Shown piece by piece: positions 3,823 to 16,378 of a stretch of 64,000 nt of DNA (position 1 is its first letter; each line of letters begins with the position of its first letter). The translations under genes were made by a program, and so were the position numbers. The notes beneath the pieces were generated by a model. It was not told where the DNA came from and did no database searches. It saw only the letters and a program-made list of their open reading frames with translations. Location of the stretch: assembly GCF_055900595.2 (NCBI RefSeq), contig NZ_CM148325.1; one strand, 5' to 3'.

Positions 3823-5151
3823 CTGATGAATCCCCTAATGATTTTGGTAAAAATCATTAAGTTAAGGTGGATACACATCTTGTCATATGATCAAATGGTT
3901 TCGCCAAAAATCAATAATCAGACAACAAAATGTGCGAACTCGATATTTTACACGACTCTCTTTACCAATTCTGCCCCGAATTACACTTAAAACGACTCAA
4001 CAGCTTAACGTTGGCTTGCCACGCCTTACTTGACTGTAAAACTCTCACTCTTACCGAACTTGGCCGTAACCTGCCAACCAAAGCGAGAACAAAACATAAC
4101 ATCAAACGAATCGACCGATTGTTAGGTAATCGTCACCTCCACAAAGAGCGACTCGCTGTATACCGTTGGCATGCTAGCTTTATCTGTTCGGGCAATACGA
4201 TGCCCATTGTACTTGTTGACTGGTCTGATATCCGTGAGCAAAAACGGCTTATGGTATTGCGAGCTTCAGTCGCACTACACGGTCGTTCTGTTACTCTTTA
4301 TGAGAAAGCGTTCCCGCTTTCAGAGCAATGTTCAAAGAAAGCTCATGACCAATTTCTAGCCGACCTTGCGAGCATTCTACCGAGTAACACCACACCGCTC
4401 ATTGTCAGTGATGCTGGCTTTAAAGTGCCATGGTATAAATCCGTTGAGAAGCTGGGTTGGTACTGGTTAAGTCGAGTAAGAGGAAAAGTACAATATGCAG
4501 ACCTAGGAGCGGAAAACTGGAAACCTATCAGCAACTTACATGATATGTCATCTAGTCACTCAAAGACTTTAGGCTATAAGAGGCTGACTAAAAGCAATCC
4601 AATCTCATGCCAAATTCTATTGTATAAATCTCGCTCTAAAGGCCGAAAAAATCAGCGCTCGACACGGACTCATTGTCACCACCCGTCACCTAAAATCTAC
4701 TCAGCGTCGGCAAAGGAGCCATGGATTCTAGCAACTAACTTACCTGTTGAAATTCGAACACCCAAACAACTTGTTAATATCTATTCGAAGCGAATGCAGA
4801 TTGAAGAAACCTTCCGAGACTTGAAAAGTCCTGCCTACGGACTAGGCCTACGCCATAGCCGAACGAGCAGCTCAGAGCGTTTTGATATCATGCTGCTAAT
4901 CGCCCTGATGCTTCAACTAACATGTTGGCTTGCGGGCGTTCATGCTCAGAAACAAGGTTGGGACAAGCACTTCCAGGCTAACACAGTCAGAAATCGAAAC
5001 GTACTCTCAACAGTTCGCTTAGGCATGGAAGTTTTGCGGCATTCTGGCTACACAATAACAAGGGAAGACTCACTCGTGGCTGCAACCCTGCTTACTCAAA
5101 ATCTATTCACACATGGTTACGTTTTGGGGAAATTATGAGGGGATCTCTCAG
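3823..5151 (+). mobile_element. IS10 insertion sequence (1329 bp)
   Basis: Begins CTGATGAATCCCCTAATGATTTTGGTAAAAATCATTAAG and ends ...ATTATGAGGGGATCTCTCAG (IS10 outside/inside ends from memory); length 1329 bp; encodes the transposase. Confidence 0.9.
3930..5138 (+). CDS. IS10 transposase
   Basis: 402-aa [70 protein letters not shown]..., recognised as Tn10/IS10 transposase. Confidence 0.9.
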
Positions 5152-5160
5152 TGCCAAGCA
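5152..5160. repeat. Right copy of the 9-bp IS10 target-site duplication (TGCCAAGCA)
   Basis: Same 9-mer as 3814..3822; removing IS10 plus one copy restores ...VNAKHYFSS... in frame. Confidence 0.8.
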
Positions 5161-6250
5161 CTACTTTTCCTCTAACGATGCAGATGATGGTGATACTACT
5201 TATGCCCGTCTTGGCTTCAAAGGTGAAACCCAAATCAACGATCAACTGACTGGTTTCGGTCAGTGGGAATATGAATTCAAAGGCAACCGCGCTGAATCTC
5301 AAGGTTCCTCCAAAGACAAAACCCGTCTTGCATTTGCAGGCCTGAAATTCGGTGACTACGGCTCAATCGATTACGGCCGTAACTACGGTGTAGCATACGA
5401 CATCGGTGCGTGGACTGACGTCCTGCCAGAATTCGGTGGTGATACCTGGACCCAAACAGATGTGTTCATGACTGGTCGCACTACTGGTGTTGCAACTTAT
5501 CGTAACAACGACTTCTTTGGTCTGGTCGATGGCCTGAACTTTGCTGCTCAGTATCAGGGTAAAAATGACCGCACTGACGTAACTGAAGCCAATGGTGATG
5601 GTTTCGGTTTCTCCACTACTTATGAGTATGAAGGATTCGGCGTGGGTGCAACCTATGCTAAATCAGATCGCACTGACGGTCAGGTCGCCTATGGTAAGAG
5701 CAAATTCAATGCCTCCGGCAAAAATGCGGAAGTATGGGCTGCAGGCCTGAAATATGATGCGAACAATATCTATCTGGCTACCACATATTCTGAAACTCAG
5801 AATATGACCGTTTTTGGTAATAACCATATTGCAAACAAAGCACAAAACTTTGAAGCAGTAGCACAATATCAGTTTGACTTCGGTCTGCGCCCATCTGTTG
5901 CTTACCTTCAGTCAAAAGGTAAAGACCTTGGTGTTCATGGTGACCGAGACTTAGTCAAGTATGTCGATGTCGGTGCTACTTACTACTTTAATAAAAACAT
6001 GTCCACTTTTGTTGATTACAAAATCAACTTAATTGACGATAGTAAGTTTACCAAAACAGCTGGTATTGATACTGATGACATCGTTGCTGTAGGTCTGGTT
6101 TACCAGTTCTAATCTGATTACGAAAAAGATATGTTGCGGGAGGCGTTGCCTCCCCAACATATAAGTGGCTCCCTCAAGCCACTTCCTTTAGAAGCACAAC
6201 CTTGCTTCTAACTATATAAACCTTCTGTTATATATTACCCTTTATTTTTG

Positions 6251-10917: not shown

Positions 10918-11265
10918 ATGACTATCAAAGCGACTGACATAGAGATTCTTCATCGTTATGCTGAAGGGGTAATGGAACGTTCTAACCATCATGCAAAAAA
11001 TGTTGGTGCAGCCGCTCTTACATTGCTAGGAGGTGTTATCTGGAAAGCCCTGCCCGGCTCAATCGAGATAAGAACGTATAACGGAAGTCTTGCAAATATG
11101 GTGTGGTGGCAAAGCGAAAGAACATTAAAAAATTATGCAATCTCATACAACCATAATTCATGTGAAATTGAAATGAGAGATGAATCAGTCAAAGGTGCTG
11201 TATTATTTAGCATTTCCAACGAAACCACTCCAGAAAAAATATTATCACAGCTTTCTGAGCTTTAA
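10918..11265 (+). CDS. Hypothetical protein (115 aa), oriented against the surrounding early operon
   Basis: ORF MTIKATDIEILHRYAEGVMERSNHHAKNVGAAALTLLGGVIWKALPGSIEIRTYNGSLANMVWWQSERTL...; AT-rich; no family recognised. Confidence 0.45.
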   Translation: MTIKATDIEILHRYAEGVMERSNHHAKNVGAAALTLLGGVIWKALPGSIEIRTYNGSLANMVWWQSERTLKNYAISYNHNSCEIEMRDESVKGAVLFSISNETTPEKILSQLSEL

Positions 11266-11270
11266 TTAAA

Positions 11271-11288
11271 GGCGGTGCTAACACCGCC
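11271..11288 (-). terminator. Hairpin terminator between P and the 115-aa gene (tR2-like position)
   Basis: GGCGGTG-CTAA-CACCGCC; on the minus strand followed by TTTAATTAAA. Confidence 0.45.
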
Positions 11289-11469
11289 CATACCATTACT
11301 CCACATCTTACGCAACTTGATAATTATGCTCTATTAAATACCCACAATATTTCATCAATGCATGGGTCAGCTATAAAATGTTTACCGTGGTAATTCCTGT
11401 TTTCGCAACATCTCAAAAGAACAATAAACACTGTATTTCTTCAAGTAACGAAGAATCTTTCTTTGCCCG

Positions 11470-12171
11470 TCATACACTTGCTCCTTTCAGCCCAAACTTA
11501 GCTTTGATTTCTGCGATCTTCGCCAGAGCCTGTGCACGATTTAGAGGTCTACCGCCCATGACAGGAAGTTGTTTTACTGGTTCAGGTATCGCCTCACCAC
11601 GGTTAATTCGCGCGGTCATACAGGTCAGCTCATCGGCAGCTTTACGCCGTAATTCCGCGTCAGTCAGCGCATTGGCCCGCATGTTCTGGTACAGGTTGGT
11701 AACCAACCAGTAGTGCGCGTTTGATTTCCATGGATAAGACTCTGCGTCCGGATACAGGCCACGCTTCCGGCAATACTCGTAAACCATATCAACCAGCTCG
11801 CTAGCGTTTGGCAGCCCGGCGGTAACGGATGCTTCTTCCCGGCACCAGGCAACAAACTGCCCGGGTGATGGCAGGAATGGTCGATTCTGCCGACGGGCTA
11901 CGCGCATTCCAGCGTTAACCTGTTCCATCGTGGTGATCCCATTTTCCCGGAAAGCCAGAACCCACTGGCGGCGGATTTCGTTCAGTTCGTTCTGGTCACG
12001 GTTAGCCAGGCTCGCAGGGAAAGTTGCCAGTAACTGGCTGAACACACCGTTGATGATCTGCGCTACCTGCTGTACCTGCGGCTTTTCGTCGTACTGTTCC
12101 GGCATGTTGTTGGCGATCCGACGCATCTGCTCACGGTCAAAGTTAACCATCTGTGCGGCGATGTTTTTCAT
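11470..12171 (-). CDS. P: Replication protein P (DnaB helicase loader), lambda-like
   Basis: 233-aa ORF MKNIAAQMVNFDREQMRRIANNMPEQYDEKPQVQQVAQIINGVFSQLLATFPASLANRDQNE..., recognised as near-identical to lambda P. Confidence 0.92.
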   Translation of the reverse strand: MKNIAAQMVNFDREQMRRIANNMPEQYDEKPQVQQVAQIINGVFSQLLATFPASLANRDQNELNEIRRQWVLAFRENGITTMEQVNAGMRVARRQNRPFLPSPGQFVAWCREEASVTAGLPNASELVDMVYEYCRKRGLYPDAESYPWKSNAHYWLVTNLYQNMRANALTDAELRRKAADELTCMTARINRGEAIPEPVKQLPVMGGRPLNRAQALAKIAEIKAKFGLKGASV

Positions 12172-13097
12172 AGATCAACCCCGTAAATCCAGTCTGTGTT
12201 TGTCAGGTCGAGTTTTGGTTTGCTGGCTGTCACGCCTGCCTGTTGCTTGTTACGGTTGATTTCGAGCTGGGTCCACTTGTCGCGGAGTTTGGCCGGACTT
12301 AGCACGTTACCGGACCAGAAGTTGTCCTGGCATGCCCAGCGGAACAGCACGCACATGTCGCGGTGGTTACGTCCGTCACGTTCACGCATCAGGCGGATAT
12401 CGTTAGCCCACCCTGCAAAATTCGGTTTTCTGGCTGATGGCGCGATGGTCTTCACCATGTCAAACATCCACTCTGCGGCGGTCAGGTCTTCTGCTGTCCC
12501 CCACTTGCTGCCGCTCTGAATCGCAGCATCCGGTTTCACCACAGGAAGGTCGTTTTCTGGCTGATCAGAGGATTCGCCAGAATTCTCGGACGAATAAGGT
12601 TTTATATTGTCTTTTGTTAGTTTGTCTTTTGTGTTTACCTGATTCGGGTAAACGCCTTTACCTGATTTGGGTAAACTTTTCTTACCTGATTCAGGTAAAT
12701 TTACCTCTTTCAGGTAAACTTTATTTTTCTTACCTGATTCGGGTAATGTTGACCATTCACTGACCACATTATTAATACCGATATTCCGCCCGCTCTGAAT
12801 CAAAATCCCACGCTTTACCAGAACACTTTTTGCAGCAGAACACTTGTGCGGTAATATCTCGGTCAATCCAGACAGTTGCTCGTTGCTCACCCAATCCAGT
12901 TTTTTATTAAAGCCATATGTTTTGCGCATGACAGCCAGGAAGACCAGAAGCTGGTGCTGTGTTAATCCGGCCAGCATCACAGCTTCCAGCAACTCATTTG
13001 CAATGCGCGTATAACCATCATCGAGATCTGCCACGCGCGGCTCCTTTTGTGCCGCATCCGGCACTGGAAAATTGAATATCTCAGCAGTGTTTGCCAT
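12168..13097 (-). CDS. O: Replication initiator O (lambda-like C-terminus, divergent iteron-binding N-terminus)
   Basis: Start taken at MANTAEIFNFP... (SD GGGAGGA upstream) inside track ORF 12168..13187; C-terminus ...WMFDMVKTIAPSARKPNFAGWANDIRLMRERDGRNHRDMCVLFRWACQDNFWSGNVLSPAKLRDKWTQLEINRNKQQAGVTASKPKLDLTNTDWIYGVDL matches lambda O. Confidence 0.85.
   Translation of the reverse strand: MANTAEIFNFPVPDAAQKEPRVADLDDGYTRIANELLEAVMLAGLTQHQLLVFLAVMRKTYGFNKKLDWVSNEQLSGLTEILPHKCSAAKSVLVKRGILIQSGRNIGINNVVSEWSTLPESGKKNKVYLKEVNLPESGKKSLPKSGKGVYPNQVNTKDKLTKDNIKPYSSENSGESSDQPENDLPVVKPDAAIQSGSKWGTAEDLTAAEWMFDMVKTIAPSARKPNFAGWANDIRLMRERDGRNHRDMCVLFRWACQDNFWSGNVLSPAKLRDKWTQLEINRNKQQAGVTASKPKLDLTNTDWIYGVDL
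12635..12746. repeat. Phage replication origin: five iterons (TTACCTGATTCGGGTAAA-like inverted repeats) inside the O gene, next to an AT-rich stretch
   Basis: Copies at about 12635, 12658, 12682, 12701 and 12730, each with TTACC...GGTAA arms; AT-rich run at 12600..12634. Confidence 0.65.
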
Positions 13098-13183
13098 AAT
13101 TCCTCCCGCAATGAGTGTGTTACGATTTGCACCTGAAAGTCGGTTCTGTTCCAGCAGACCGGCTTTCGCCATTTCTGAACCTG

Positions 13184-13723
13184 TCATATCGCCCCCAGCA
13201 TGGTAGTAACCATCGCCATCAATGGACCAGCCAGATCTGGGTCCACACGAAACATCGATACAATACCTTCACTAATTTCCTTCAGTTTCTGGTGGCGTGG
13301 TGCGTTGAGAATGACAGCCTGTTTTGCCTCACTGAGTTCCTTTTCCATTTCAGCCAGCCGAGCTATGAAGCTATCCTGCTCAACCAGGTGGCCGCGATAT
13401 TCCAGCGGTAGTACCGCCAGAATTGCCGGGGTCAGTTCACGCACGTTATTTCGGTATTTTTCAGAATCGAATTTGTTATCGAGGAAGCGGAACAGCTTCT
13501 GGCGTGCACGGCTGACATCATCAGGGAAATCGATGGTGCCGCCGCCCTGCTCCCGATACTCATTCACAATGAGTGCGGCAACGACATCCTGATTATCTAC
13601 AGCCGACCAGGCGCGGACGGCATCACGGATTTTTTCGTGGCCTGGAGCTTGTTTTGTTTGAGAACGATTTATCACCGCAGTCGGGCTAAATCCGCTAGTC
13701 TGTTGGTATGTAAGTGGTTGCAT
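13184..13723 (-). CDS. CII-position regulator, YdaT-like
   Basis: 179-aa ORF with strong SD (AAAGGAG); ...VNEYREQGGGTIDFP...LTPAILAVLPLEYRGHL... resembles Rac YdaT (EEYLRQGGGELPL / LIPAILAILPRELRHRL, from memory). Confidence 0.55.
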   Translation of the reverse strand: MQPLTYQQTSGFSPTAVINRSQTKQAPGHEKIRDAVRAWSAVDNQDVVAALIVNEYREQGGGTIDFPDDVSRARQKLFRFLDNKFDSEKYRNNVRELTPAILAVLPLEYRGHLVEQDSFIARLAEMEKELSEAKQAVILNAPRHQKLKEISEGIVSMFRVDPDLAGPLMAMVTTMLGAI

Positions 13724-13792
13724 AATTGACTCCTTTAGTTTGAATTGACTGTTAAGTTGATTGCTTATTGTTAAAGAGCGTGAAATGGAAAT

Positions 13793-14023
13793 TTAAGCTG
13801 CGTTCTTTTCAGTGTGTGGAAACAACTTCGGAAGATCCGGGCGAATCTGGTATGCCTTCACTACTCCACCAGTAGCCGTAACAATGCTGCCGACATGTTC
13901 AGGGGATACCTTTGCTTTGTTGTGAAGCCACTTATAGACGGCCTGCTGTGAAACTTCGCAGGCAGCGCCTAGTTTCTTTTGTGAACCAACGATATTGATC
14001 GCTGTTTTGATGGCTGGGTTCAT
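13793..14023 (-). CDS. cro: Cro-like HTH repressor (YdaS-type)
   Basis: 76-aa ORF MNPAIKTAINIVGSQKKLGAACEVSQQAVYKWLHNKAKVSPEHV...; divergent from cI. Confidence 0.6.
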   Translation of the reverse strand: MNPAIKTAINIVGSQKKLGAACEVSQQAVYKWLHNKAKVSPEHVGSIVTATGGVVKAYQIRPDLPKLFPHTEKNAA

Positions 14024-14127
14024 AACAACCTCCGTGGTTAATTTGAATCAAGATTAAAACTATGGTTGTTTTTAGTCAACAACCATTTTCGTTTGATGAA
14101 ATAAAACCTTGGTTGTACATTTGGACT
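14024..14127. promoter_or_regulatory. Divergent cro/cI control region (oR-like operators with pR/pRM)
   Basis: Perfect palindrome ATGGTTGTT-tttagtc-AACAACCAT at 14062..14086 plus further TGGTTGT/ACAACA half-sites; cI AUG at 14128 lacks an SD, consistent with a leaderless pRM-type transcript. Confidence 0.5.
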
Positions 14128-14817
14128 ATGAAAACAACACTCTCAGAAAGACTTAAAGAAGCCAGATTAGCGCGAGGCCTTACACAAAAGGCGCTTGGGG
14201 ATTTGGTCGGGGTTAGCCAAGCAGCTATTCAGAAAATCGAAACAGGGAAAGCTAACCAAACAACTAAAATCGTGGAGATCGCGAACGCTTTGGGTGTGCG
14301 CGCAGAATGGTTATCTTCTGGCGTTGGAAATATGTCAGACAGTACAGTGCAACCAATACAAACAACTGTCAGCCATTCCAAATACTTTAAGATTGACGTT
14401 CTTGATATCGAAGTGAGTGCCGGGCCGGGAGTCATCAACCGTGAGTTTGTAGAAGTTCTACGTTCGGTTGAGTATTCGTTTGACGATGCTCGTCACATGT
14501 TCGATGGCAGGAAGGCGGAAAATATCCGTATCATTAACGTACGCGGTGACAGCATGTCAGGAACGATCGAACCAGGTGATCTGCTATTCGTTGATATCAC
14601 TGTTAAATCTTTCGACGGTGATGGTATCTATGCGTTTCTGTACGACGACACAGCCCATGTAAAGCGCCTGCAAATGATGAAGGATAAACTGCTGGTTATC
14701 TCTGATAACAAGAGCTACTCACCGTGGGACCCAATCGAGAAAGACGAGATGAACCGGGTATTCATCTTCGGGAAAGTCATCGGGAGCATGCCGCAGACGT
14801 ATAGGAAGCATGGATAA
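14128..14817 (+). CDS. cI: CI-type prophage repressor (N-terminal HTH, C-terminal LexA-like S24 peptidase)
   Basis: MKTTLSERLKEARLARGLTQKALGDLVGVSQAAIQKIETGK... then ...EVSAGPG...INVRGDSMSGTIEPGDLLFVD...HVKRL... (Ala-Gly cleavage site, Ser/Lys dyad). Confidence 0.85.
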   Translation: MKTTLSERLKEARLARGLTQKALGDLVGVSQAAIQKIETGKANQTTKIVEIANALGVRAEWLSSGVGNMSDSTVQPIQTTVSHSKYFKIDVLDIEVSAGPGVINREFVEVLRSVEYSFDDARHMFDGRKAENIRIINVRGDSMSGTIEPGDLLFVDITVKSFDGDGIYAFLYDDTAHVKRLQMMKDKLLVISDNKSYSPWDPIEKDEMNRVFIFGKVIGSMPQTYRKHG

Positions 14818-14912
14818 TTCGACATAAATTCAACAAGTTAACTTTGGCTTCAAAAAAGCATCGATAACATTGCATTATATTTTTCCTTTTGTCTAACTTA
14901 AAAGGATGAACA

Positions 14913-15638
14913 ATGGAAGAACGTGGGAATTACCTAATAGACCCCCTAGAAGTAATTGGTTCTGGCGGTTTTGGCCTTGTAGAAAAAATAAGGTTATATA
15001 ACTCACAAAGAAAAATTTGTGGTCTATATGCCAGAAAAATTTTACGACCTGATGCAACAGATCCTGAACTCTTTACCAGATTTGAACGAGAAGTAAGATA
15101 TCAAACTGAATGCCTGCATACTAATATTGTCCAAATATTCATATGCCACTTACAGAATGCTCAGCCTTGGTTCGTAATGGAACTAGCAGAAACAAATCTT
15201 GAAGAAGAAATAAAAAGTGGAACTCTTACAAAGGCTGAAAAAATCTCTATTGTAAAAATGGTACTAAATGCCGTCGGATGGATTCATAAGAAAGGATATC
15301 TTCATCGGGATATAAAACCACTAAATGTACTAAAATTTAAAGATGGAATTTATAAGTTATCTGACTTCGGCCTTGCAAAAAATGTGTCACCAGATGCCAA
15401 TACACAGCTATTAACACAAATTGGCCAATACCCCGCTACTCCTAAATACTTTGATTACAACGTTTTCCTCAACGGATATTCAAAACAATCAGATATATAT
15501 TCAATTGGTATTTTAATTGAAGAATTAAATATTGATGGTTTTGATGATATAATAAACAAATGTACGCATAGACAACTTAACAAAAGATTCCTGACCGTAG
15601 AGCAGATCTTTGAGGAATTGGAGTTGAAACGCTTATGA
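14913..15638 (+). CDS. Hanks-type (eukaryotic-like) Ser/Thr protein kinase, compact catalytic domain only
   Basis: 241 aa; glycine-rich loop GSGGFG; catalytic loop HRDIKPLN; DFG motif SDFGLAK; SD AGGA 7 nt upstream; AT-rich. Confidence 0.85.
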   Translation: MEERGNYLIDPLEVIGSGGFGLVEKIRLYNSQRKICGLYARKILRPDATDPELFTRFEREVRYQTECLHTNIVQIFICHLQNAQPWFVMELAETNLEEEIKSGTLTKAEKISIVKMVLNAVGWIHKKGYLHRDIKPLNVLKFKDGIYKLSDFGLAKNVSPDANTQLLTQIGQYPATPKYFDYNVFLNGYSKQSDIYSIGILIEELNIDGFDDIINKCTHRQLNKRFLTVEQIFEELELKRL

Positions 15639-16378
15639 TTAGCATACTCTCATCATCCATATTTTCTGTACCAAAACATAATGGCAGGGAAAATCAAGAT
15701 AGCGTGCTTTATCCACTTCAAACACCAAATGGTTATCTTATGGCTATAGCTGATGGGGTTGGTGGTTATAAAGGAGGAAAAGAAGCATCTGCAGCAGTAA
15801 TAAATCATTTGTATAGTATTAAAGACAGCTTCACTCATGAAGACAATGTCTTATCCTTACTTAAGACCCTACAAGAAAAGGTGGCATCTCTTTCGTCAGT
15901 TGATAAAGAATTAGCATCTGCTGCTACAACTTTAACAATGTGCCTACTTCACAATCAAGGTCTAACAATTATACATGTAGGTGACTGTCGTGTTTATTTA
16001 AAAAATGGAAATAAGCTAATCCAATTAACAACAGATCATACTCAACATCAAATGTTGATAGATAGCGGTATTTATACAGCTCGACAGCTCAAAAATGCAA
16101 AAGGTAAAAATATTATTACAACTGCACTTGCTGCCAAGATCCCCCTTCAACATCAAGTCATAAATATTGATAAAGATGAACTTCCTCTTGACGATGGTGT
16201 TCTATCTCTATTCATCATGTCTGATGGCGCGCATACCTTTTGGGAGCAACGCCCACGATTTTCTTACCGTACATTGTCAACCGCATCAAGGTTTGCCTCC
16301 AGCCTAATGCGAAGAATAGAGACAAAAGGCCCGACTGACGATTATTCTCTTATAGCGGTAAATGTAAAGTATTTGTAA
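15635..16378 (+). CDS. PP2C-family (PPM) Ser/Thr protein phosphatase
   Basis: 247 aa; AIADGVGG and HVGDCRVYL metal-binding motifs, ...FIMSDGAHT...; start ATG overlaps the kinase stop (ATGA). Confidence 0.8.
   Translation: MISILSSSIFSVPKHNGRENQDSVLYPLQTPNGYLMAIADGVGGYKGGKEASAAVINHLYSIKDSFTHEDNVLSLLKTLQEKVASLSSVDKELASAATTLTMCLLHNQGLTIIHVGDCRVYLKNGNKLIQLTTDHTQHQMLIDSGIYTARQLKNAKGKNIITTALAAKIPLQHQVINIDKDELPLDDGVLSLFIMSDGAHTFWEQRPRFSYRTLSTASRFASSLMRRIETKGPTDDYSLIAVNVKYL

Follow-up and report, generated by a model that had tools for sequence, protein, structure and literature searches.

A probable replication origin with TTACC-N7-GGTAA iterons inside the initiator gene O of a lambdoid prophage at argU

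Positions 12598-12746 of the 64,000-nucleotide stretch of DNA analyzed here (the window) very probably form the theta-replication origin of a lambdoid prophage at argU, located inside the linker-coding middle of the prophage's own initiator gene, O. The segment carries an array of five dyad-symmetric repeats (iterons) of the form TTACC-N7-GGTAA, which are under selection at the DNA level and occur together with one particular type of O N-terminal domain, in an O gene that is chimeric with respect to lambda. Binding of O to the repeats, unwinding of the adjacent DNA, and firing of the origin would follow by analogy with lambda. The prophage sits at the tRNA-Arg(TCT) gene (argU) and is partly contained in the window; an IS element interrupts its late region. 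The features discussed are collected in Table 1.

Table 1. Features of the O-ori-P region, in coordinates of the window
Feature	Position	Strand	Description
O gene	12168..13097	-	309 aa plus stop; lambda-homologous ATG at 13097, preceded by GGAGGA
O N-terminal origin-recognition domain (predicted)	12750..13097	-	residues 1-116; PF04492
Iteron 1	12730..12746	-	O-sense TTACCCGAATCAGGTAA; extra upstream copy, 29 bp ahead of iteron 2; least conserved
Iteron 2	12701..12717	-	O-sense TTACCTGAAAGAGGTAA; second frame, VYLKEVN; aligns with lambda ITN1; arms invariant in homologues
Iteron 3	12682..12698	-	TTACCTGAATCAGGTAA; perfect 17-bp palindrome (matches both strands); LPESGK; mean identity 0.95
Iteron 4	12658..12674	-	O-sense TTACCCAAATCAGGTAA; LPKSGK; mean identity 0.955
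Iteron 5	12635..12651	-	O-sense TTACCCGAATCAGGTAA; adjoins AT-rich block; VYPNQVN; aligns with lambda ITN4
AT-rich block	12598..12634	-	O-sense ACACAAAAGACAAACTAACAAAAGACAATATAAAACC; nt 464-500 of O; presumed DNA-unwinding element and exchange junction of the N- and C-modules
Lambda-type O C-terminal domain	12171..12602	-	residues 166-309; 142/144 identical to lambda-type O
Imperfect palindrome	12555..12582	.	TTCTGGCTGATC / GATTCGCCAGAA, 83% complementary; just past the AT-rich block
P gene	11470..12171	-	233 aa; lambda-type helicase loader; start overlaps the O stop by 4 bp

The original prediction had placed five closely spaced inverted-repeat iterons within O, and the array search confirmed them. 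When the whole window was scanned with the pattern TTACCTNNTTYRGGTAA, allowing at most one mismatch, the + strand matched at the five iteron positions of Table 1 and the rest of the 64 kb gave no match; 100 dinucleotide-preserving shuffles gave a chance expectation of 0.06 sites and a maximum of 2. An independent repeat search returned one family of five copies, with start-to-start spacings of 23, 24, 19, and 29 bp. Each copy is a 17-bp element in which 5-bp inverted arms, TTACC and GGTAA, flank a 7-bp spacer, and the consensus is TTACCTGATTCGGGTAA on the + strand, or TTACCCGAATCAGGTAA when read in the sense of O. The elements lie at 12635-12746 (+ strand reading), all inside O, where they start at nt 352, 381, 400, 424, and 447 of the gene and together cover nt 352-463. 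At least three to four tandem dyad-symmetric iterons of about 17-20 bp were looked for mid-gene, between the N- and C-terminal domains, and five were found there. The array begins directly after the predicted winged helix of the N-terminal domain, which ends at about residue 112.

Directly downstream of the last iteron is an AT-rich, strand-asymmetric region, as had been proposed: the GC minimum across the gene (0.25) falls at 12590-12629, and the AT skew drops to -0.77 within 12590-12649. Since O is encoded on the minus strand, this stretch follows the iterons in the sense of O only and has the lower coordinates on the + strand. Its core, CACAAAAGACA...ACAAAAGA-AATA, is invariant in five origin types (those of the window, lambda-type phages, P22, HK446, and SEN34), and the block CACAAAAGACA...ACAAAAGACAATA aligns base for base with lambda, P22, the HK97 type, and SEN34. 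The sequence of the imperfect palindrome at 12555-12582 is also present in the aligned O genes of the lambda type and of SEN34. When 11000-15000 was scanned against Rfam, the palindromes drew chance matches below threshold and nothing else, and no oop-like family was found. At the place that pO occupies in lambda, a promoter scan gave a sigma-70-like site running antisense to the start of O; it was set aside as statistically unsupported (1 found, 2.7 expected).

The O start codon was chosen by alignment with lambda-type O. Databases annotate a longer form of the open reading frame (339 aa, 12168-13187), whose in-frame ATG lies further upstream and overlaps the stop codon of the preceding YdaT-like gene; homologues with another upstream gene start at MANTAE. 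The N-terminus of the protein belongs to the Phage_rep_O family, PF04492 (E 4.2e-33; 114 bits, cutoff 28.7), and O also matches phrog_277, 'replication initiation O-like' (E 4e-163). Cluster names read only 'replication protein (O)', with no link to a named classical phage. A connection to the replication module (oriJ) of Rac, prompted by the YdaS- and YdaT-like upstream genes, was rejected, as YdaU of K-12 is a DUF1376 protein in another arrangement.

The AlphaFold2 model of O (alignment of 13 sequences; mean pLDDT of 67.5 for the whole model, 78-91 for residues 31-110) has a winged helix-turn-helix at residues 28-112, in which residues 83-95 form the recognition helix and residues 99-108 the wing, and the N-terminal domain is accordingly predicted to be a winged helix. 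The best PDB matches by Foldseek are winged-helix regulators of the CRP/FNR and MarR families; being weak (E about 5e-3), they point only to the general winged-helix fold. A sequence search of the PDB for a structure of the O family gave nothing meaningful. Residues 119-165, which are encoded by the iterons and the AT-rich block, form a disordered tail in the model.

A lambda-like C-terminus following a divergent N-terminus had been claimed for O. The C-terminal domain is indeed nearly identical to that of lambda-type O (Table 1), and from 12602 onward the DNA matches many lambda-type phages at 94-97% identity, whereas the N-terminal 165 residues are 40.9% identical (tblastn). The proposed lambda-type partner was found as well: the adjacent P protein belongs to PF06992 (E 9e-62) and is identical to P of phage 434 at 230 of its 233 residues, which completes a helicase-loading pair of the lambda O-P kind. 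Homology to lambda sets in precisely where the last iteron meets the AT-rich block, and homology to O types of 284 aa ends at that block. Proteins of 278-286 aa combine this N-domain and iteron module with another C-terminal domain, the joint falling within the AT-rich block; the gene after these encodes a DnaC-like (IstB_IS21) loader in E. coli, Klebsiella, and Pluralibacter and a P-family protein in Salmonella. Judged from these alignments, O is chimeric relative to lambda, and the AT-rich block together with the C-domain/P pair is a separate exchangeable module, in the classical modular layout.

Every O type that we retrieved carries a dyad-symmetric repeat of its own at the same place in the gene. 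The repeat is TCCC-N9-GGGA in lambda-type O (4 copies; gpO sites annotated in phage 434), TTTACCAGATCGGTAAAA in P22 gene 18 (4 copies), ATTAGCCAAGTCGGCTAAT in HK446, of the HK97 type (4 copies), TTAGC-N7-GCTAA in SEN34 (at least 3), TCCC-N8-GGGA in Gifsy-2 (6 copies), TGTCTC-N7-GAGACA in mEpX1 (at least 3), and TCAC-N7-GTGA in Sf101 (at least 3), and phi80 has 4 annotated gp15 sites. Iterons 2-5 of the window are in register with the four iterons of lambda-type phages, P22, HK446, and SEN34, with spacings of 19-20, 24, and 23 bp. Only these four copies are in register with the other origins, and iteron 1 is therefore an extra upstream copy. The O protein is 10 aa longer than lambda O, which matches the presence of the extra iteron.

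The architecture is that of the lambda origin, as the original prediction had it. Lambda, and likewise phage 434 and the Stx phages 933W and P27, has its origin within O at about nt 350 (lambda-type O has its iterons at nt 350-433); each iteron has dyad symmetry, with arms of 5 bp around a 7-bp spacer, the four proximal copies have the same spacings, and the AT-rich sequence CACAAAAGACA...ACAAAAGA follows directly, ahead of a near-identical C-domain and P. The iteron itself differs, also in agreement with the prediction: lambda has TCCCT-N7-AGGGA in four copies (six in Stx phages), whereas the window has TTACC-N7-GGTAA in five. The window N-domain is only about 41% identical to that of lambda O and the recognition helix 29%, and the gene upstream is YdaT-like, whereas in lambda it is cII. 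Neither iterons of the form ATCCCTCAAAACGAGGGA nor an N-domain near that of lambda O, which together define the ori-lambda specificity class, were found in this O gene.

Among characterized initiators, the closest N-domain is that of P22 gp18 (53.5% identity over residues 19-162). P22 gene 18 is reported to hold four repeats of about 20 bp unlike those of lambda (PMC8022706). They share with the window the register, the outer 5-mers TTACC/GGTAA, and the AT-rich block, but their arms are 5 bp apart (TTACCAGATCGGTAA), whereas those of the window are 7 bp apart, which separates the window from the P22 class (TTTACCAGATCGGTAAAA, 5-bp spacer); P22 gp18 also has another C-terminal domain, and it is paired with the DnaB-type helicase gp12 instead of P. 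The HK97/HK446 type and SEN34 have the geometry and register of the window (5-bp arms, 7-bp spacer, spacings of 20, 24, and 23 bp), and SEN34 shares the lambda-type C-domain and P with it. Their arms, TTAGC/GCTAA, however, differ from those of the window by one base per half-site. All five TTACC-N7 types begin the recognition helix with LPHK, and both TTAGC-N7 types (SEN34 and HK446) begin it with HHTH, although over residues 1-70 SEN34 O and the window type share 71% identity. This correspondence of LPHK and HHTH with TTACC and TTAGC arms is a suggestive co-variation, drawn from very few independent lineages.

The comparison with phi80 that had been called for was also made: gp15 has its four annotated sites at the same place as the window iterons, but the CCCGAAAACGGGAA-like repeats and the N-domain (37% identical) are clearly different. 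The origins of phages 82 and phi80 are classical ori-specificity classes (Furth & Yates 1978 and Moore et al. 1979, cited in PMC6022878). The concept there is the same, a type-specific O N-terminus and iterons with an exchangeable C-terminus. A search of 50,697 phage records and of the searchable papers yielded no ori or O sequence of phage 82. The record named 'Lambda h434 imm21' bears a lambda-type O and is therefore uninformative about the native O of phage 21. On the sequences compared, the N-domain/iteron class of the window is distinct from those of lambda, phi80, P22, the HK97 type, Gifsy-2, mEpX1, and Sf101.

At a coverage of at least 80%, the N-module is present in 2296 of 5426 complete E. 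coli genomes (42%), and the lambda-type N-module in 1319 (24%). A single-protein search for related loci gave only relatives with 98-99% identity, and divergent homologues were added singly. The array is present in all of 80 IMG/VR relatives, 73 of which share the identical five-iteron arrangement, and likewise in 15 sequenced phage isolates and in the diverged E. coli, Salmonella, Klebsiella, and Pluralibacter homologues; the repeats are thus not absent from homologous functional origins, an outcome that would have spoken against the original prediction. The isolates, which carry the whole O gene at 96.6-98.4% identity, include Turner, 1W, 3W, Perceval, 4A7, Lambda_4C10, and the PhiR series. 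The O-ori-P module is 97-98% identical to that of the plaque-forming Turner, 1W, 3W, Perceval, 4A7, and PhiR series, and in Turner it is the sole replication module. As the sole replication module of viable phages, it must be functional in those phages.

The repeats might conceivably be a by-product of a flexible peptide linker made of LPESGKK units that multiplied by slippage, with no role as DNA sites and with the true origin elsewhere. The region does encode a Lys/Ser/Gly-rich segment that is disordered in the AlphaFold2 model, and the Salmonella homologues vary by unit steps of 24 bp, with 4 to 6 strict matches. Iterons 1, 3, and 4 encode LPESGK or LPKSGK, but iterons 2 and 5 lie in another frame and encode unrelated peptides, and the copies are palindromic, which a peptide repeat would not need to be. 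Conservation was followed in seven homologues with N-domain DNA of 73-80% identity (from E. coli, Salmonella, Klebsiella phage GZ7, Pluralibacter, and one further locus). Codon positions 1, 2, and 3 are about equally invariant in the iteron block (0.68/0.73/0.70), as opposed to 0.75/0.83/0.22 in the N-domain, so that 70% of third positions are invariant in the block and 22% in the N-domain. In iterons 2-5, all 40 arm columns are invariant, as are 18 of the 28 spacer columns. The array is, moreover, in register with the experimentally defined iterons of lambda. Taken together, the change of frame between copies, their palindromic form, and the even conservation across codon positions contradict a pure peptide-repeat reading, which we regard as highly improbable; the comparison of homologues identifies the repeats as DNA signals. 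They are kept as DNA together with a cognate N-domain: the strict motif TTACC-N7-GGTAA occurs 4-6 times, and only inside O, in every fetched locus with the window-type N-domain, and is absent from all fetched loci with other O types.

Even with the repeats taken as binding sites, it is possible that only the four iterons near the AT-rich block are functional and that iteron 1 contributes little or nothing, as a duplicate that is decaying or accessory. Conservation climbs toward the AT-rich block, with mean pairwise identities of 0.83, 0.92, 0.95, 0.955, and 0.966 for iterons 1 to 5 in the seven diverged homologues; iteron 5 is the most conserved copy, with 16 of 17 columns invariant, and iteron 1 the least, being degenerate in the Salmonella and Klebsiella versions, where just 4-bp arms are left. 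In the DNA alignments no repeat of lambda, P22, or the HK97 type stands at the position of iteron 1, and one IMG/VR relative lacks it. In the Stx phage origins with six iterons, only the four proximal ones are efficiently bound, yet the weakly bound extra iterons are still needed for plasmid replication (PMC7466680), and iteron 1 retains perfect 5-bp arms in 76 of the 80 relatives (E. coli lineages). We give the four-iteron alternative somewhat less than an even chance. Another consideration is that the origin sequence may be intact in a cryptic prophage copy and be a silent relic in this genome. A DDE transposase adjoins a clipped porin gene in the late region, the argU site is the one used by the defective prophage DLP12, and only about 21.6 kb of the prophage lies within the window. 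The genes for O, P, integrase, recombination functions, the CI-like repressor, and the Cro-like protein, and the gene at the cII position, are all intact open reading frames, however, and the close identity of the replication module to those of viable phages also argues against a relic, which we consider unlikely, though less so than the peptide-linker explanation.

The preferred reading is thus that of an origin of the lambda design. In lambda, four 19-bp iterons are bound by the N-terminal half of O, both the iterons and the AT-rich stretch next to them are required, and two proximal iterons with the AT-rich region are enough for unwinding in vitro (PMC4488673, PMC7466680). The iterons within the O gene are described as differing between O types (PMC8022706). 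By analogy, dimers of the O N-terminal winged helix would bind the dyad-symmetric TTACC-N7-GGTAA iterons (17-19 bp) as in lambda, with iterons 2-5, nearest the AT-rich block, as the core and iteron 1 as a weaker, accessory upstream site. An O-some assembled on the iterons would distort and wrap the DNA, and the adjacent A-rich, strand-asymmetric block would melt. The lambda-type C-domain of O would then recruit the lambda-type P-DnaB complex, leading to loading of the host helicase. The specificity of the origin would reside in the pair of N-domain and iteron.

No binding, footprint, or replicon assay for the TTACC-N7-GGTAA class was found in the searchable literature, nor was any paper describing this iteron, the 1979-81 ori82 sequence being outside that literature; a search for the literal iteron string across 8 million papers returned unrelated primer matches only. 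None of the phage isolate records inspected carries an origin annotation, and the iteron class is annotated in no record inspected, though about 42% of complete E. coli genomes and many isolated phages carry it. An origin inside O, type-specific iterons, and exchangeable modules have been textbook knowledge since about 1980. Measured against the origins compared, which do not include ori82, the present one follows a well-understood design, of which it is an ordinary variant, if a very widespread one.

Nothing about this origin is conceptually new, and its practical value is modest but real. Defining the class allows such origins to be annotated and the replicon specificity of prophages to be typed, and helps to predict cross-interference between co-resident prophages. 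The aligned origin types also provide a natural series for dissecting how the winged-helix initiators of the O family read their sites. We tentatively suggest, as a possibility that we hold short of probable, that TTACC-N7-GGTAA with its cognate N-domain is an experimentally uncharacterized specificity class, commoner in complete E. coli genomes than the lambda class, and that it forms with TTAGC-N7-GCTAA of the HK97 type and SEN34 a natural switch of one base per half-site that tracks LPHK versus HHTH at the start of the recognition helix. If this is true, it would make site recognition by O-family initiators readable as a tractable code and would allow prophage replicons to be typed by compatibility.

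From position 1 up to roughly 21.6 kb the window is prophage; the remainder is chromosome. Because the tyrosine integrase adjoins tRNA-Arg(TCT), argU is the integration site of this prophage, the same site that is used by DLP12. The features that surround the O-P replication module are listed in the table.

Features around the O and P genes
Feature	Position	Strand	Remark
DDE transposase (IS) and porin gene	3930-6112	+	IS directly upstream of and overlapping the porin gene
115-aa ORF	10918-11265	+	directly downstream of P, on the opposite strand
Sigma-70-like promoter (TTGAAT-17-CATAAT, extended TG)	13072-13100	+	candidate; antisense over the O start codon
YdaT-family protein (179 aa) and YdaS-family HTH protein	13184-14023	-	cII and cro positions, respectively
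Eukaryote-like protein kinase and PP2C phosphatase	14913-16378	+	two overlapping genes next to the CI-like repressor
Tyrosine integrase	20383-21546	+	adjoins tRNA-Arg(TCT)
tRNA-Arg(TCT)	21562-21638	-	adjoins the integrase

The protein at the cII position belongs to the YdaT family (PF06254) and matches phrog_163, 'CII-like activator'; a YdaS-family HTH protein takes the place of cro. A Rac-like regulatory pair is here coupled to a lambda-like O-P module. In Rac itself the genes for replication are unrelated ones, YdaU/YdaV.

The database annotation of O is 339 aa long and begins at 13187 (-), with an ATGA overlapping the stop of the YdaT-like gene. Homology and a GGAGGA Shine-Dalgarno sequence favor instead a start at 13097 (-), giving 309 aa; both versions are present as database entries. 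The promoter candidate lies where lambda has pO/oop and is followed by a weak hairpin at about 13140-13165. The site is not above chance (one found versus 2.7 expected in the promoter scan), and a scan of 11000-15000 gave no Rfam match above threshold.

The ORF downstream of P, at the place of ren in lambda, belongs to the integron-cassette family VCH_CASS14 (PF18315, phrog_5959) and is probably a moron. The kinase (Pkinase E 3e-32; PADLOC matches mad6, PD-T4-6 and Stk2) and the phosphatase (PADLOC match PDC-M21C) look like a prophage-borne anti-phage exclusion pair. In the late region, the match of the porin gene to the Porin_1 profile begins only at profile position 10, and the gene's arrangement with the IS resembles the IS-disrupted nmpC of DLP12.

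In the Salmonella homologues (L099, LR134140.1, 1881-2011; P0119) the iteron array is enlarged by exact 24-bp units, which encode LPESGKKS repeats and bring the strict iterons up to 6. L099 carries a truncated O of 239 aa and a fragmentary P. Alternative O C-terminal domains, ending in ...NGWQGLFEP, are near-identical in the homologous loci of E. coli, Klebsiella and Pluralibacter (L084/L098/L091/L096) and in that of Salmonella (L086). The next gene encodes a DnaC-like AAA+ loader in the former and a Phage_lambda_P-family protein in the latter. With two kinds of protein encoded behind a near-identical domain, the question is which partner this C-terminal domain contacts.
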